Source: Candidatus Thorarchaeota archaeon (GTDB lineage: Archaea > Asgardarchaeota > Thorarchaeia > Thorarchaeales > Thorarchaeaceae). From it: a DNA stretch of 64,000 nt. A model generated the notes under the pieces. The model searched no databases and was not told the origin of the DNA. It was given only the letters and a program-made list of their open reading frames with translations. Both the position numbers and the translations under genes were made by a program. Shown piece by piece: positions 54,426 to 61,702 of this stretch (within the stretch, counting starts at the first letter, position 1; each line of letters opens with the position of its first letter). The stretch is taken from contig CAVSBO010000018.1 of NCBI GenBank assembly GCA_963726195.1, positions 32,001 through 96,000 of the forward strand, given 5' to 3'.

Positions 54426-54588
54426 GTATCGGGGGATTGTATGGTTGCTTCGCGTCATACGGTGTCAGGTCTGATGCAGAAGGCGAATGCCGAGCGATGA
54501 TGACCGGTGCCTCCAAGCGCGATCAAATGATGCGGACCGGAGATAGACCGGCGCACGGTTGTGCCGGAATGCCCTCGGGTCTAAGACA

Positions 54589-54647
54589 TGCTCAACAGTG
54601 TGCAGGCTAGATGGGTAGGCTCTCCTAGCTATCCACTACGCCTGTAC
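54589..54647 (+). other. 5' strand of the pre-16S processing stem
   Basis: TGCTCAACAGTG, GGGTAGG, TCTCCT, GCTATCCAC and GTAC are complementary to CACTGTTGAGCA, CTTGCCC, AGGGGA, GTGGATAGC and GTAC at 56356-56411. Confidence 0.85.
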
Positions 54648-55611
54648 TTCATCAAGCTCACTCAAAGTGTGCATAAACGTGCATGACGGTCGAACCTAGT
54701 TCGATTTACCTTGCCGGTCATGTGCGATATCGGGATGACTCTAGTCGATCCTGCTAGAGGGCACTGCTATCGACTTGGGGCTAAGACATGCAAGTGGAAC
54801 GAACTCGCATCCGAGTTCGTCGCGAACGGCTCAGTAGTGTCGTTAACTTACCCTGTGGAGGTGGATAACGCCGGGAAACTGGCGGTAATACACCGTAGGA
54901 GCGTCGTTCTGGAAATGATGTTGCTCTGAAATGGCGGTCCTAGGCATGTGGGATCGTCCGCCGCAGGACGGGACGGCACCGGATCATACTTGTAAGTGGG
55001 GTAATGGCCCACTTAGGTTTTGACCCGAACGGGCGATGTAAGTCGTGGCCCGGAGAGGGGCACTGAGACAAGGGCCCCAGCCCCACGGGGTGCAGCAGTT
55101 ACGAAACCTCAACAATGCGCGAAAGCGCGATTGGGCCAAGTCGAGTGATGGGGGATAACTCCATCTGTAGTGGATCCTTAGTACGGACCACCAGAAAGGA
55201 GAGGGCAAGGCTGGTGCCAGCCGCCGCGGTAAAACCAGCTCTTCGAGCGGTGCCCACAATTATTGAGCTTAAAGCGTCCGTAGCCTGTTTGGTAGGTCCC
55301 TGCTCAAATCCGGCCGCTCAACGGTCGGACTGGTAGGGATACCGCCTTGCTGGGGGACGGGAAACGGCGACGGTATTCCACAGGTAAGGGTGAAATCTTA
55401 TGATCTGTGGAGGACCACCAGTGGCGAAGGCGGTCGCCGAGAACGTGCCCGACGGTGAGGGACGAAACCCAGGGGAGCAAAGCGGATTAGATACCCGCGT
55501 AGTCCTGGGCGTAAACGATGCCCGTTAAGTGTTGCATTGGCCACGAGCCACTGCGGTGCTGAAGCGAAAGCGATAAACGGGCCGCTTGGGAAGTACGGTC
55601 GCAAGGCTGAA

Positions 55612-55681
<70 letters not shown>

Positions 55682-56243
55682 GCTTGCGGTTTAATTGGAC
55701 TCAACGCCGGAAAACTTACCCGGCCAGACAGCCGAATGAGAGCCAGACTGACGATCTTGCTCGACGAGCTGAGAGCTGGTGCATGGCCATCGCAAATTCG
55801 TGCCGTGAGGTATCAGCTTAAGTGCTGCAACGAATGAGATCCCTGCCACGTAGTTGCCAGCCGGGGGTACAAACCCCGTCGGGGCACACTACGGGGACCG
55901 CCAGCGATAAGCTGGAGGAAGGTGGGGGCCACGGTAGGTCAGTATGCCGCGATATGGCCGGGGCCACACGCGTGCTACAATGGCAGCGACAATGCGTCAC
56001 AACACCGAGAGGTGAAGTCAATCGCCAAACGCTGCCGTAGTTGGAATTGTGGGTTGGAACTCATCCACATGAACCTGGAATCCCTAGTATCCGCGTCTCA
56101 CTACGGCGCGGAGAATATGTCCCCGCTTCTTGCACACACCGCCCGTCGCTCCATGCGAGCGGCCTTGGGGTGAGGCGGCGTCCATAGGATGCTAACGAAT
56201 CTTGAGGTCGCAAGTAGGGAGAAGTCGTAACAAGGTATCCGTA

Positions 56244-56439
56244 GCGGAAGCTGCGGATGGAAGAAGATGAGATTTCCTCACCTTCCATCAATCACCTCCT
56301 ATGCTTTCTACCATAGAGGTAGAAGCGGCTTGTTTCTGCTCTTCGGAGCAGAGGGGTACTGGCGGGTGGATAGCGTACAAGGGGACTTGCCCTAACTGGC
56401 ACTGTTGAGCACCCTATTTCTTTCGCACAGGTTTGTCAT
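56244..56439 (+). repeat. Repeat copy R1 (native 16S 3' end plus trailer/processing strand)
   Basis: 196-nt block repeated at 58778-58973. Confidence 0.95.
56262..56291 (+). other. 30-nt BHB intron in 16S between GGA and UCACCUCCU (E. coli ~1531/1532)
   Basis: G-GATG-[GA|A]-GAAG...CTTC-CATC-[AA|T]-C. Removal restores GCGGATGGATCACCTCCT. Confidence 0.85.
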
Positions 56440-56494: not shown

Positions 56495-56959
56495 TTATCC
56501 TTCTGTTGCGATTCGCCTGCTCAATGCTCGGGCTCTTGCCAGTTCTTCCGTTGGTGAGTCGTCGTTACAACTGTCCATGTAGTGTTGGTAGGCATCGATG
56601 CTTTCCTTGATGTAGTCCCCTGCCTCGGCGAGGTCTTTCTTGCGCTTGGTAATCCTTGCGAGTTCGTACGGGGTCCTAGCCAGGTCGAGTTCCAAGATTG
56701 GGTCTTGCTTGATTAAGTCCCTAATCAATGTCAGCTTCTTTTCGAGGTCAGTACGAGTTGTCCCGAGCTTCATTATGTCTTCAAGCTGAATTTCATGCAG
56801 AATTCGTGCCAGACTTGCAAGAAGCTGGGGGTAGTTCTCGACCCTTTTCTTGGTTGCATGCTCTTCGAAATAGTCTTTGGCGAAGTTGGAAATAGCGATC
56901 TTTGCTTCTCTCGTGGCGCTCCTCATTGTCCAAGAGTGTGTGGGGTCGACTTGATTCAA
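56495..56959 (-). CDS. Helical hypothetical protein (TPR-like), possibly N-truncated
   Basis: ORF with LARTPYELARI...AGDYIKESIDAY helical pattern. Confidence 0.55.
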   Translation of the reverse strand: MNQVDPTHSWTMRSATREAKIAISNFAKDYFEEHATKKRVENYPQLLASLARILHEIQLEDIMKLGTTRTDLEKKLTLIRDLIKQDPILELDLARTPYELARITKRKKDLAEAGDYIKESIDAYQHYMDSCNDDSPTEELARARALSRRIATEG

Positions 56960-56979
56960 AACCGCGTATCGCAGACGTT

Positions 56980-57621
56980 TCAGAGTCTTCTTCTGAGGTA
57001 CGCGACCGATAATACTAGGACAACAGCCCCGGCTAGCACTCCACCTGCCAAGAGGTTCACTGGCATACCTTCTGAAGTTGAGGTGGGAGTCGAGGATTGT
57101 GTACGATACAGTGCACAGTAGGAGTAATTGACAGTATCAGATATGCTCCATCTGCCAAGGCTGTCCTGTGCATAATACTCCACGTTCCACACTTTCAGCC
57201 TGTGATCTGGGTCTAAGACAAACGTGGTAGCATTCGCATAATACGAGTATACTTCGGTATACTTGGAATTGTTGACGGCCCAGGTGCCCATGTAGGTCAT
57301 GGTAACGTTCGTCCAAGTGGGGTCAGCATTGTCCTTGTAGCTGCCTATGGTCAAGTTCATCCCATTTGAATCCCCTATCCACACGGAAAGTTCGAGGACG
57401 AAACTCCAGGGAAGGGGTCTCGTATCTGCAGTCGTATCAACTATCAATCCAGAAAGGTCGACGAAGATAGGGCCCTCAGAGTTTGAACAGGCAAATGCTT
57501 TCGCATTTGTTGCAATAGGGGGCGCAACGAATAGGAGGGAGACGAGGACTGGTAGAACAAACATCGCGCACCTGATTCCACTAGCATAGATTCGCATGTT
57601 TACCACCGTTGCACTACCCAC
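56980..57621 (-). CDS. Surface protein with signal peptide, S/T linker and C-terminal TM anchor
   Basis: Hydrophobic N-terminus, YYAQDSLGRWS (Ig-like strand), STPTSTS, TM plus RRRL. Confidence 0.75.
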   Translation of the reverse strand: MGSATVVNMRIYASGIRCAMFVLPVLVSLLFVAPPIATNAKAFACSNSEGPIFVDLSGLIVDTTADTRPLPWSFVLELSVWIGDSNGMNLTIGSYKDNADPTWTNVTMTYMGTWAVNNSKYTEVYSYYANATTFVLDPDHRLKVWNVEYYAQDSLGRWSISDTVNYSYCALYRTQSSTPTSTSEGMPVNLLAGGVLAGAVVLVLSVAYLRRRL

Positions 57622-57802: not shown

Positions 57803-57859
57803 GTACTGGCGGGTGGATAGCGTACAATGGGACTTGCCTAACTGGCACTGTTGAGCACC
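57803..57859 (+). repeat. Repeat copy R2 (16S 3' processing-stem strand)
   Basis: GTACTGGCGGGTGGATAGCGTACAATGGGACTTGCC-TAACTGGCACTGTTGAGCACC matches 56356-56413 with 1 substitution and 1 deletion. Confidence 0.95.
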
Positions 57860-57953: not shown

Positions 57954-58371
57954 TTACATCGCAGTCGGGTCGAGCCGAGTCAACCCCTTTATTCTGTCAT
58001 AGACCTGATCCGTGGAGGCAATGGTATGGTCTGGATTGTCTTCGCTGAGTGAAACTGCTGCGTAGATTGCATCAAAGATGGATGGCAATTGGTAGTTCTC
58101 CAGAAGAAACAATGCGGCTGAGCTGATGGTCAATCGTTGTCGGAACAACTGATAGATTGGGGAACGCCACGATGTGACTCATGACGTCTCGAACTGAGGC
58201 CACGCCAGTGATGTTCCTCAAGACGTAGTACAGCTCAATCGAGAAGGCACTAGGGATTACGACATTGCCTAACTCTCCATTTCTTATCTTTGAGAACAAG
58301 CGAATTGCATGGGGCTTGAGGTAGTCTTCTTTCTTGTAGAAAGCCAGAATCATATCATTCTCAATCAACAC
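57954..58371 (-). CDS. vapC: PIN-domain toxin VapC, frameshift near 58130
   Basis: LIENDMILAF...IELYYVL in one frame, then SIFDAIYAA...IASTDQVYDRI in the next. Confidence 0.85.
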
Positions 58372-58636
58372 TCCGACTCTTCCTCCGCCATCTCTTGGAC
58401 ACATCCTTGGTAGCCTCAGTTTCTCCCTGTTGGAGAAGCTCAGCAATGGAACCCTGAACATCCAATTCAGGCTTCTCAGAGGGCACCGGAAAGAGAATAT
58501 GGTAGGCTCCGAGACTGAGGAGAAGGAATGTATCTCCCTCTAGTGCAGCTTTCTTTGGGATTCTGATGCGTCTCTGACCATCCATTCGAACTCTTGCTAT
58601 CATAAAGAACATCTCGAATAGTGATATAACTGACAT
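58361..58636 (-). CDS. vapB: AbrB/MazE-type antitoxin VapB (likely start ~58603)
   Basis: VRMDGQRRIRIPK swapped-hairpin motif. Overlaps the vapC start. Confidence 0.8.
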   Translation of the reverse strand: MSVISLFEMFFMIARVRMDGQRRIRIPKKAALEGDTFLLLSLGAYHILFPVPSEKPELDVQGSIAELLQQGETEATKDVSKRWRRKSRSVD

Positions 58637-58777: not shown

Positions 58778-58973
58778 GCGGAAGCTGCGGATGGAAGAAG
58801 ATTAGATTTCCTCGTCCTCCATCAATCACCTCCTGTGTTTTCTACCATAGAGGTAGAAGCGGCTTGTTTCTGCTCTTCGGAGCAGAGGGGTACTGGCGGG
58901 TGGATAGCGTACAAGGGGACTTGCCCTAACTGGCACTGTTGAGCACCCTCTTTCTTATTCACAGGTTTGTCAT
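58778..58973 (+). repeat. Repeat copy R3 (16S helix-45 3' half, intron, anti-SD and trailer)
   Basis: Direct copy of 56244-56439. 58839-58949 is identical to 56305-56415. Confidence 0.97.
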
Positions 58974-59016: not shown

Positions 59017-59301
59017 TTAGGGTACCGGTTGGCTTACTCTCTCGATTGCCTGAAGTACTTCGTCCACCTTCTTCTGAGAGAGAATCGTTCTGACCGCATC
59101 AAGTTCGAGCCGATTTCTTATTATGACACCTATCTTATTGATTGGATTTCCGCTCTTGTCAATCGGATTGACCTCAATAGCTAGATAGGCTGGTTCATCC
59201 TTTGATTGAGGTATCTTTCTGATGAATATCCCGGGCTCGGTAGTCCTCATGCGTTCGAATCTTCTTCCGTGCTTGAGCATATCTCTCAGTGATTCTTCCA
59301 T
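59017..59301 (-). CDS. Small hypothetical protein (94 aa)
   Basis: ATG preceded by the SD-like GGTGA. Protein-like composition (GIFIRKIP...YLAIEVNP). Confidence 0.75.
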   Translation of the reverse strand: MEESLRDMLKHGRRFERMRTTEPGIFIRKIPQSKDEPAYLAIEVNPIDKSGNPINKIGVIIRNRLELDAVRTILSQKKVDEVLQAIERVSQPVP

Positions 59302-59495: not shown

Positions 59496-60938
59496 CTAGC
59501 TCAGCTTCTTGGCTCTCTGCTTGATTATGTCCCTCATCTTGGCCTCAACATCTTTGTCCAGCGGTGGTATCTTATGGGTCTCAAGAATCCTCTTGACTTT
59601 CTCCTTGGCTCGCTGGACTATGTCTTTCGATCCTTTTGCTTCCCAGTCTGGTCTCGAAGTCCTATCAGTAATCCAAGGTTGCCAGTATTCCTCTCCGACA
59701 TACTTCCTAGAGAACTCAAGAGCATCATCGTTTGTGAAATGATTGCTATCGTGTCCGACTTTGTCTATGATATCGACCGCTAGAGTCTCTTTCGTTACTT
59801 TGATGCCCTCTGCAATTCGTTTGATTGCCCCACAGATTTCATTGCTGATTGCGAACTGCTCATAGGAAGCAGTTATTCCCGTCTCGACGATTCCATAGAC
59901 TGCGTCATGCACGACATCGGCACCGGCCAGAGTGGCAACGAGCACATTCAGAGCATTCTCGTATGCGGCTTGGGAATCCGGAACCTTCGAGTCGCTAATG
60001 CCACAGGCCCCGTAGTATGGAATGCCATAGTAATGGGCCATTTGACACATTGCAGCATGAATCAGACCATTCTCTGGTGCCCCATACGCGGCAGTGCCAT
60101 GTCTCTGGTCTAGGATTGTGCCGCCTGAGCCCCACATGATAGGGGTTCCAGAACCGACGAGTTCTGTAATCACGACGACCGTATGATTCTCTGCTATGCC
60201 CTGTACGATTGATCCTGCAAGCGTAGCCGGAGCACTTGCGCCAGACAGCAAACCTGTGCTGATGTCAAATGGAATTCTGTATTTCGCGCATTCAAGGATT
60301 ATGTCGATAATGTTTGCGGTATACTTGAGTGGGGGAACACTATTGAGACCCGTGTCAATCCAAATCGGATTCCTGACGAATTCCTCTTCTCCGCCGACGA
60401 ATATCTTCGCCATTTCAATGATGTCTCTGAATGCCTGTAAGCTTGTTGCAAAGAAGCTGCTGTGCTTCTCAGTGTTCTTGAGCATCGAGAGAGCCATCGT
60501 TTGTTCCTTTATGCCATCGGGTACGTCCTGCGGGATTATGTTCGCCTTTACATAATCGACAGTAGGGAAGTAGTCTGAGAGAAGCGTAAACTCCTCCAAG
60601 TCTTTCAATGTCGAAGGCCTGCGTTCACCGGTCTCCAAGTCATATGTGTACTGTGCTCCGAAGGCGTTCGTGTAATAAGAGCCGCCGTCACCTACCACGA
60701 AGTTGTGTTTCGGGTTTCGCGCCTTCATGAGATGACGACTCGGGGTCTTCTTGAGGGCTTCGCGAACGAGGAATTCCGGGATTTTGGCCACTTTCTTCCT
60801 TTCATCAATGATTGCTCCGGCTTCCCCAAGAATCCGAAGAGCTTCTTCGTGTTGAATCAGTATGCCAGTTCTTTCAAGAACCTCCATCGCAGCCAAGTGT
60901 ATTGCATGAATGTCGTCACGACTCATCAGTTCAAACAT
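59496..60938 (-). CDS. Trimethylamine methyltransferase (MttB) superfamily, non-pyrrolysine member
   Basis: PATLAG, GAPE, SDSKVPDSQAAYE, GIVETG. No in-frame TAG (Ile at the Pyl-equivalent site). GGAGGAG SD before ATG 60938. Confidence 0.9.
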   Translation of the reverse strand: MFELMSRDDIHAIHLAAMEVLERTGILIQHEEALRILGEAGAIIDERKKVAKIPEFLVREALKKTPSRHLMKARNPKHNFVVGDGGSYYTNAFGAQYTYDLETGERRPSTLKDLEEFTLLSDYFPTVDYVKANIIPQDVPDGIKEQTMALSMLKNTEKHSSFFATSLQAFRDIIEMAKIFVGGEEEFVRNPIWIDTGLNSVPPLKYTANIIDIILECAKYRIPFDISTGLLSGASAPATLAGSIVQGIAENHTVVVITELVGSGTPIMWGSGGTILDQRHGTAAYGAPENGLIHAAMCQMAHYYGIPYYGACGISDSKVPDSQAAYENALNVLVATLAGADVVHDAVYGIVETGITASYEQFAISNEICGAIKRIAEGIKVTKETLAVDIIDKVGHDSNHFTNDDALEFSRKYVGEEYWQPWITDRTSRPDWEAKGSKDIVQRAKEKVKRILETHKIPPLDKDVEAKMRDIIKQRAKKLS

Positions 60939-61003
60939 AGATTCTCCTCCTGTTCTTTCGTCACCCTTCTCTTGCGCCCGCAGTTTGGCAAAACAGACCG
61001 GAA

Positions 61004-61654
61004 TCACTTCTTCTCCACAAGTCGCTTGGCAAGACTTGCCGCTGTTACGGCGTCACCCGCCCATCCATCAGCTCCGATGTCTCTCGCCCACTTTTCAGTA
61101 GTAGGAGCTCCTCCGATTATCACTTTGACCTTGTCCCGGAGTCCAGCTACTCTGAGTTCATCAATAATCTTCTTCTGCACTGGCATGGATGATGTTATCA
61201 GCGATGACATCCCAACGATGTCGGGTTTCTGTTCCTTCACGTTCTTCACGAACACCTCAACTGGGACGTCTTCGCCTAAGTTTATGACCTCGAAGCCATT
61301 GGCTTCAAGCATTGTTGCTACAATGTCCTTGCCTATGCTATGGATGTCTCCTTGGACTGTGCCTATGATGACTTTCCCAACAGTCTTCATTTTCCCCTTT
61401 GTCGCTTTGAGTTCCCCCAGAAGCACGGCCATACCAGCTTTCATGGCCTTGCCCGACGCCATTAGTTCCACGAGGAATACCTCCCCTTCCCCGAACTTGT
61501 CACCGACTTCTCTGACACCCTTTGCCAGTCCGTTTGTGATTGCTTCAAGAGGTGGAATCTTTGCTTCCAGCGCCTTCCTTGCGGCTTTTTCTGCCTCATC
61601 CTTCTTTCCTCGGATGACTGCCTGTCTTAGTTCTTCAAGAATCGCGGATGACAT
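61004..61654 (-). CDS. Cognate corrinoid (B12-binding) protein
   Basis: GTVQGDIHSIGKDIV, DIVGMSSL, IIGGAP, GADG. Confidence 0.93.
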   Translation of the reverse strand: MSSAILEELRQAVIRGKKDEAEKAARKALEAKIPPLEAITNGLAKGVREVGDKFGEGEVFLVELMASGKAMKAGMAVLLGELKATKGKMKTVGKVIIGTVQGDIHSIGKDIVATMLEANGFEVINLGEDVPVEVFVKNVKEQKPDIVGMSSLITSSMPVQKKIIDELRVAGLRDKVKVIIGGAPTTEKWARDIGADGWAGDAVTAASLAKRLVEKK

Positions 61655-61702
61655 TCTGCTTTCTGCCTCAATCTTTGAATGGTTTTCAGGTTTCAATGTT
61701 GG

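Follow-up and report, generated by a model that had tools for sequence, protein, structure and literature searches.

The 16S rRNA gene of a Candidatus Thorarchaeota archaeon carries 30 additional nucleotides between helix 45 and the anti-Shine-Dalgarno (anti-SD) sequence, which raises the questions of whether this insert is an intron and how it came to lie so close to the end of the rRNA. All coordinates refer to the window, the whole stretch of 64,000 nt that was analyzed. The features of the gene and its flanks are as follows.

54586..54660, plus strand: 5' leader strand of the pre-16S processing stem, pairing with the trailer
54738..56300, plus strand: 16S rRNA gene, single copy, with two short introns, unlinked to 23S
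55612..55642, plus strand: BHB hairpin intron after E. coli position 908, 31 nt; 4/4 central, 4/4 inner and 3 outer pairs; a catalogued locus (PMC4496867)
56236..56259, plus strand: helix 45, whose last four bases (56256-59) also serve as exon strand in the central helix of the BHB
56262..56291, plus strand: HBh' mini-intron (the main finding), 30 nt, after E. coli A1531; stem 56263-71/56277-85, loop 56272-76, central-helix strand 56286-89
56292..56300, plus strand: 3' exon, the anti-SD end of 16S, as read from the sequence and from loose RNA ends after 56261
56301..56425, plus strand: 3' trailer, its proximal part a hairpin haplotype that is linked to the intron, followed by the 3' strand of the processing stem and a T-rich end

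The insert at the 3' end of the 16S rRNA

The Rfam model RF01959 spanned 54738-56270 and was the sole 16S match in the assembly, in which the 23S gene sits on another contig. The leader (54586-54660) and the trailer (56340-56420) folded into a duplex of -84.9 kcal/mol with a perfect core of 12 bp (54589-54600 with 56400-56411). No canonical BHB was resolved in this processing stem, and the 23S gene gave no clear BHB intron. At position 908, an insert was present in 13 of the compared 16S genes, some of them 740-900 nt long. Two side observations concern the leader. An 11-base word (54581-54591) recurs exactly at 54781-54791, near the 5' end of 16S, and throughout the Thorarchaeia family of the host a word like it is conserved in the leader. 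An RNA contig from a relative, in run X3, extended from leader into 16S (window 54469-54864) at a depth of 627, compared to a few thousand for the 16S body, and 5'-extended precursor may be abundant.

Alignment to E. coli rrsB placed the 30-nt insert after A1531. The end of the gene thus reads GGA (56259-61), insert (56262-56291) and anti-SD (56292-56300), exactly where an initial annotation of this DNA had put a 30-nt insert between GGA and the anti-SD. In the central helix, GAUG (56256-59) pairs with CAUC (56286-89). The two bulges are GA|A (56260-62) and AA|U (56290-92), and the inner stem (56263-71 with 56277-85) forms 8 of 9 pairs below a 5-nt loop. The outer helix has 1 bp only, which assigns the insert to class HBh'. 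Excision after the second base of each bulge gives back the universal 16S end exactly, the same as in intron-less relatives, so that both the geometry of the motif and these relatives bear out the annotated BHB intron whose cuts restore the consensus. The combination of 4/4 central and 4/4 inner pairs at the insert borders occurred in 267 per million shuffled inserts. The Rfam scan of the window gave no intron match, and a size of 30 nt rules out a group I or group II ribozyme core, which takes hundreds of bases. As in the short-hairpin BHB class, the insert is shorter than 50 nt, forms a hairpin and contains no endonuclease gene (30-33 nt in all 80 copies).

These 80 copies at 1531 include 24 distinct native variants, in all of which the central helix pairs. 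The inner helix of 9 pairs is 94% paired, and 5 pairs covary with both sides changed, while the final two intron bases, which are bulged, are variable. Overall, 96.4% of the cells paired compared to 30-64% once the partners were slid, a control that flatters the result since the structure was derived from the same sequences. A compensatory change in the central helix, from GAUG to GCUG in the exon with CAGC or CAGU in the intron, was found in two copies outside the Thorarchaeia 16S type, one of them on the chimeric contig L297, the second in a displaced tail from a different Asgard family. Of the inner pairs, the first four were intact in 23 of 24 native and 29 of 40 displaced copies, counts that include kin and are not independent, and the hairpin energies of native and displaced copies showed no clear difference (p 0.21). 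The host genome encodes two EndA paralogs, one with and one without the catalytic Tyr-His-Lys residues (alpha/beta), as well as RtcB; judged from the substrate range of the (alpha-beta)2 type, this is the set expected to splice relaxed motifs. The insert is a real BHB-type mini-intron.

RNA contigs from two studies matched the host species up to 56261, in stretches of 137 and 362 bases, and ran on for a further 10 and 19 bases, loose ends that in both cases read as anti-SD. The 1531 insert was absent from the RNA contigs, among those listed. Since intron-less strains give identical RNA, these insert-free contigs fit splicing and intron-less strains alike. The 908 joint appeared in RNA and DNA runs alike and is therefore no proof of splicing either; the lack of trailer cover in RNA runs was not taken as evidence. 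Considering the motif, its conservation and the enzymes, the 1531 intron is very likely spliced. If the insert were instead kept in the mature rRNA, it would stand between helix 45 and the anti-SD as a small hairpin. The predicted lowest-energy fold, with the whole of helix 45, a separate hairpin and an anti-SD that is about 80% unpaired, could accommodate this, and the region presumably lies at the ribosome surface. Retention gives no reason for the conserved exon pairing, the exact 3-nt bulges and the exon-intron covariation, and the RNA contigs listed speak against it as well, so that we consider it very unlikely.

For all 24 native variants, the energy models used predicted a BHB fold at least 3.8 kcal/mol less stable than full helix 45 together with the hairpin. 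The predicted splice fold and full helix 45 are mutually exclusive, as the base of helix 45 must open. Splicing would have to catch an early or minor fold, a timing constraint that the models would impose on sister introns as well and that gives no sign of regulation. The initial annotation had described a pairing between intron and helix 45. This 8-bp pairing is real, but it represents a slipped register in which the 5' bulge is closed; it is one alternative to the BHB and does not belong to it. Its suggestion of competition with helix 45 folding holds insofar as the splice fold can form only with helix 45 open at its base, but the effect is generic, being shared with sister introns at 1499 and in the helix 45 loop.

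Patchy distribution among relatives

A scan of 400 Asgard genomes showed that the 1531 intron pattern is almost confined to the Thorarchaeia family of the host. The intron and its flanks in one further Thorarchaeota MAG (L107) were the same as in a family member (G082). In a pattern scan of GTDB genomes, one of at least 118 matches listed was a 16S end, of a Thorarchaeota MAG, and the others were chance matches. Two scans of viral contigs gave chance matches only, and no viral carrier of a 16S tail was found.

A native 3' end was visible in 41 family genomes, of which 14 had the native intron and 27, or two thirds, did not; one genome (G034) was mixed, with both forms, and G003, from the same genus as the host, lacked the intron. 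On the 16S tree, presence and absence required 10 changes compared to 10.7 with shuffled labels, with the metagenome rows having been chosen by their intron pattern. Intron presence is random, that is, unclustered, on this tree.

The variation apparently extends into the species. In the peat run X1, the type of which was guessed, the host species was present at >99% identity. A 659-nt contig spanned 55652-56339 with one mismatch and 31 gap positions, equal to the 30-nt insert plus one listed insertion; the position of the 30-base gap follows from length arithmetic. A second X1 contig carried an intron-bearing tail starting at 56244 and joined to other DNA. X1 thus apparently contains a strain of the same species without the 1531 intron. 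The intron-less allele keeps the intron-type trailer, which suggests that precise loss also occurs and fits such loss better than a swap of the whole tail. Intron gain and loss can be traced here inside one species, beside spare copies that may act as donors.

The initial annotation had proposed that splicing attaches the anti-SD as a maturation checkpoint, and that cleavage without ligation gives anti-SD-less ribosomes favoring leaderless mRNA. Two points would agree with this idea: the splice fold excludes full helix 45, so that splicing must precede its locking, and cleavage alone would free the last nine bases. A checkpoint is difficult to reconcile with an intron that is missing from two thirds of the relatives and apparently from a same-species strain, and that is scattered randomly on the tree. 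The ribosomes also appear to retain their anti-SD. SD motifs had their peak at -15 to -10 and were found in 24% of the 518 starts, compared to 4.6% in a control window, and this strong signal indicates that the anti-SD is in use; RtcB is present, and the RNA contigs run into an intact anti-SD. We find neither part of the proposal sustained and judge it highly improbable, and the intron provides no evidence for specialized ribosomes. As a separate candidate, a role as anti-SD decoy was rejected: the host allele contains an anti-SD-like word (-11.4 vs. -15.1 kcal/mol), but most variants do not. The 1531 intron is best read as close to neutral and carried on a swappable 16S tail.

Spare 16S tails and the downstream cassette array

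Behind the 16S gene lie three spare tail copies, each of which closes a small gene block.

56495..57621, minus strand: cargo of cassette 1, two ORFs (154 and 213 aa) without Pfam match
57803..57859, plus strand: displaced copy of the distal trailer, 57 bp, 96.6% identical
58072..58636, minus strand: cargo of cassette 2, a small gene pair without Pfam match of its own, with homologs recurring in cassettes of other genomes
58778..58973, plus strand: displaced 16S tail copy, 196 bp, 94.9% identical, reaching from the loop of helix 45 to the end of the trailer
59017..59301, minus strand: cargo of cassette 3, a 94-aa ORF also found in a cassette of L242
59388..59408, plus strand: trailer stub closing the array, 21 bp

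The displaced 16S tail contains a second intron allele at 58796-58825, which differs from the first in 4 of 30 bases and which the initial annotation had not linked to it. In the family as a whole, arrays of this kind are common: 107 displaced tails and 78 cassettes with a median of 1.5 kb were found, and the cassettes are rich in PIN-type toxin-antitoxin pairs. The gene pair of cassette 2 reads like an antitoxin and a PIN-type gene in two frames. The PIN-like gene (57954-58461) itself seems split between two reading frames near 58084. Ras/Roc-type small GTPase genes were also observed as cargo (L225, L244, L240), and beyond the array, at 59496-61696, lie the trimethylamine methyltransferase gene mttB and a corrinoid protein gene, with an Rfam PYLIS_3 match just above cut-off at 59900-59999. 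Displaced 16S tails were seen in two other Asgard families as well (L265:5008-5121, Atabeyarchaeia; L280, family f21), and the array habit may be wider than Thorarchaeia.

The near-copy of 196 bp only 2.5 kb away raises the concern that the assembly joined an intron-less 16S gene to an intron-bearing spare tail, all the more since X1 (host species) has an intron-less gene together with an intron-bearing spare tail. Against such a chimera, the same join was found in 30 independent native places, including the close relatives L216 and L242. Between unique 16S sequence and the intron lie just 18 shared bases, and the native and displaced alleles differ. An assembly artifact is accordingly most improbable.

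Intron presence goes with one trailer haplotype. One proximal trailer motif followed 74 of 80 intron tails compared to 2 of 29 intron-less tails, across genera, while the distal trailer stays matched to the leader of its own host. Three genomes (G069, G081, and G028) resemble X1 in that the gene lacks the intron and the array behind it contains a spare tail with the intron. The displaced tails have a common 3' end, and their 5' starts are scattered from about U1498 to the stem core.

Taken together, we consider it probable that the insert is a non-coding BHB intron that is spliced by EndA and RtcB, is near neutral, and is gained and lost by recombinational exchange of 16S tails. In the pre-16S RNA, the bottom of helix 45 would open and GAUG would pair with the intron CAUC; (alpha-beta)2 EndA would then cut both bulges and RtcB would join A1531 to U1532, giving the normal anti-SD end. 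The weak outer helix is probably offset by the processing stem, the observed duplex of which may still tie the 3' exon to the 5' leader. The intron would come and go because recombination exchanges the whole tail (helix 45, intron, anti-SD and proximal trailer) with spare tails, either incoming or already resident, which bound the gene cassettes behind the 16S gene in the observed pattern. The ragged 5' starts would be consistent with a cut near 1499 that was repaired from one side.

Alternatively, the spliced intron could have been spread by homing-endonuclease cutting and co-conversion near 1499-1531. Co-conversion is the published route for hairpin introns, as at the Pyrobaculum loci 1205 and 1213 (PMC4496867). 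Break repair would also displace the old tail and leave its 5' end ragged, the displaced tails start no further upstream than about U1498 and scatter downstream as expected after a cut with resection, and the long introns at 908 in relatives also favor this route. On the other hand, the 80 copies at 1531 all have the short length given above, none at 1499 is long, and no homing nuclease family was among the best 25 of 100 cargo families. We regard homing as unlikely. No recombinase or nuclease that would drive the tail swap was found either, with no integrase among the same best 25 of 100 families. A tyrosine integrase (PF00589) was matched on other contigs in G000 and G005, and in none of G032, G069, and G081; near the arrays there was none. 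The repeat core contains GTTGAGC, which resembles the attC motif GTTRRRY, but this core is a strand of the processing stem.

A broader reading, which we put forward tentatively as somewhat short of probable, is that the 16S 3' end of Thorarchaeia is an exchangeable module and the joining site of an integrase-free cassette array. With each cassette gain, helix 45, the anti-SD and the proximal trailer could then be replaced and a spliceable intron brought in or removed, and one family of ~30-nt introns, often with an AYUUC loop, would have moved among at least seven 16S sites. If true, it would be a visible route for the spread of BHB introns without a homing nuclease.

Sister introns and comparison with known systems

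Similar BHB inserts of ~30 nt were found in Thorarchaeia 16S genes after about positions 696, 908, 1339, 1346, 1363, 1375, 1386, 1499, and 1531, numbered by alignment, with 1499 and 1531 verified by motif. The 30-nt introns after A1499, in the decoding region, occurred in L014, L017, L019, L025, L027, L029, and L030, with 27 distinct variants. In G022 (L020, minus strand), the loop of helix 45, where the two dimethylated adenines are located, contains three tandem hairpin inserts of ~30 nt, 89 nt together. An AYUUC loop of five bases, with G-C or C-G as the closing pair, occurs in many of the sister introns. Between the 1531 and 1375 families, 16 bases are identical, compared to at most 10 in shuffles. 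The 16S introns showed no similarity to the tRNA introns of the host genome, in a low-threshold tRNA list that was mostly noise. Other Asgard lineages (L022/G040, L023/G048) have BHB inserts after about 1527, 1513, 1397, and 1057. A chimeric 16S (L297/L326, on contig C82 of G093) combines a Thorarchaeia 5' part, a 617-nt insert near 975 and the 3' part of another archaeon, which carries the 1531 intron.

With these results, the known range of short BHB rRNA introns comes to include Asgard archaea and the final bases of 16S. The introns at 1499 and 1531 fall within what we take to be the binding sites of the common primers 1492R and 1525R/1541R, and full-length 16S surveys may consequently under-count Thorarchaeia. 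Automatic annotation would report a missing anti-SD.

The 13 catalogued archaeal 16S intron loci run from 374 to 1391 and do not include 1531 (PMC4496867). The site was likewise not found in the literature searched, which excluded most subscription papers, so that absence there does not mean that it is unpublished; to this extent the annotated status of an undescribed site stands. For Asgard rRNA introns, the literature searched gave only a passing mention of insertions, in a partial Helarchaeota 16S (PMC9723726), and tRNA studies.

The closest known elements are the small (<50 nt) BHB introns of Thermoproteales, Desulfurococcales and Aigarchaeota reported by Jay and Inskeep in 2015 (PMC4496867), which are likewise short non-coding hairpins with BHB borders at conserved 16S sites and a patchy distribution. 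Locus 908 is common to both sets, whereas 1531 occurs only here, the host belongs to a mesophilic Asgard class, and the spread is linked with a trailer haplotype and with spare 16S tails instead of a neighboring homing intron. The non-canonical tRNA introns of Asgard archaea (PMC11291895; bioRxiv 10.64898/2026.10.13.758758) share the phylum, the EndA type, an HBh' motif scored as canonical and repeated gains with the 1531 intron. Both studies cover tRNA only, and the preprint, which does not mention rRNA or Thorarchaeia, names the arrival of such introns as the central open problem (bioRxiv 10.64898/2026.10.13.758758).

The array resembles two known kinds of system. As in the Islander genomic islands at tRNA and tmRNA 3' ends (PMC4383910), incoming DNA restores the 3' end of the gene and leaves a displaced fragment, with tandem build-up. 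In contrast to those islands, the target here is 16S rRNA, the fragments have a common 3' end and scattered 5' starts, and the cassettes are about 1.5 kb, without integrase and without a single fixed crossover point. Integron cassette arrays and CALINs, including archaeal ones, similarly form rows of small cassettes with repeats between them and many toxin-antitoxin pairs; they are enriched in Asgard genomes, and rRNA is unmentioned in that report (bioRxiv 10.1101/2022.02.06.479319). In contrast to these, the repeat here is an rRNA tail, the cargo lies on both strands, and no integrase is adjacent.
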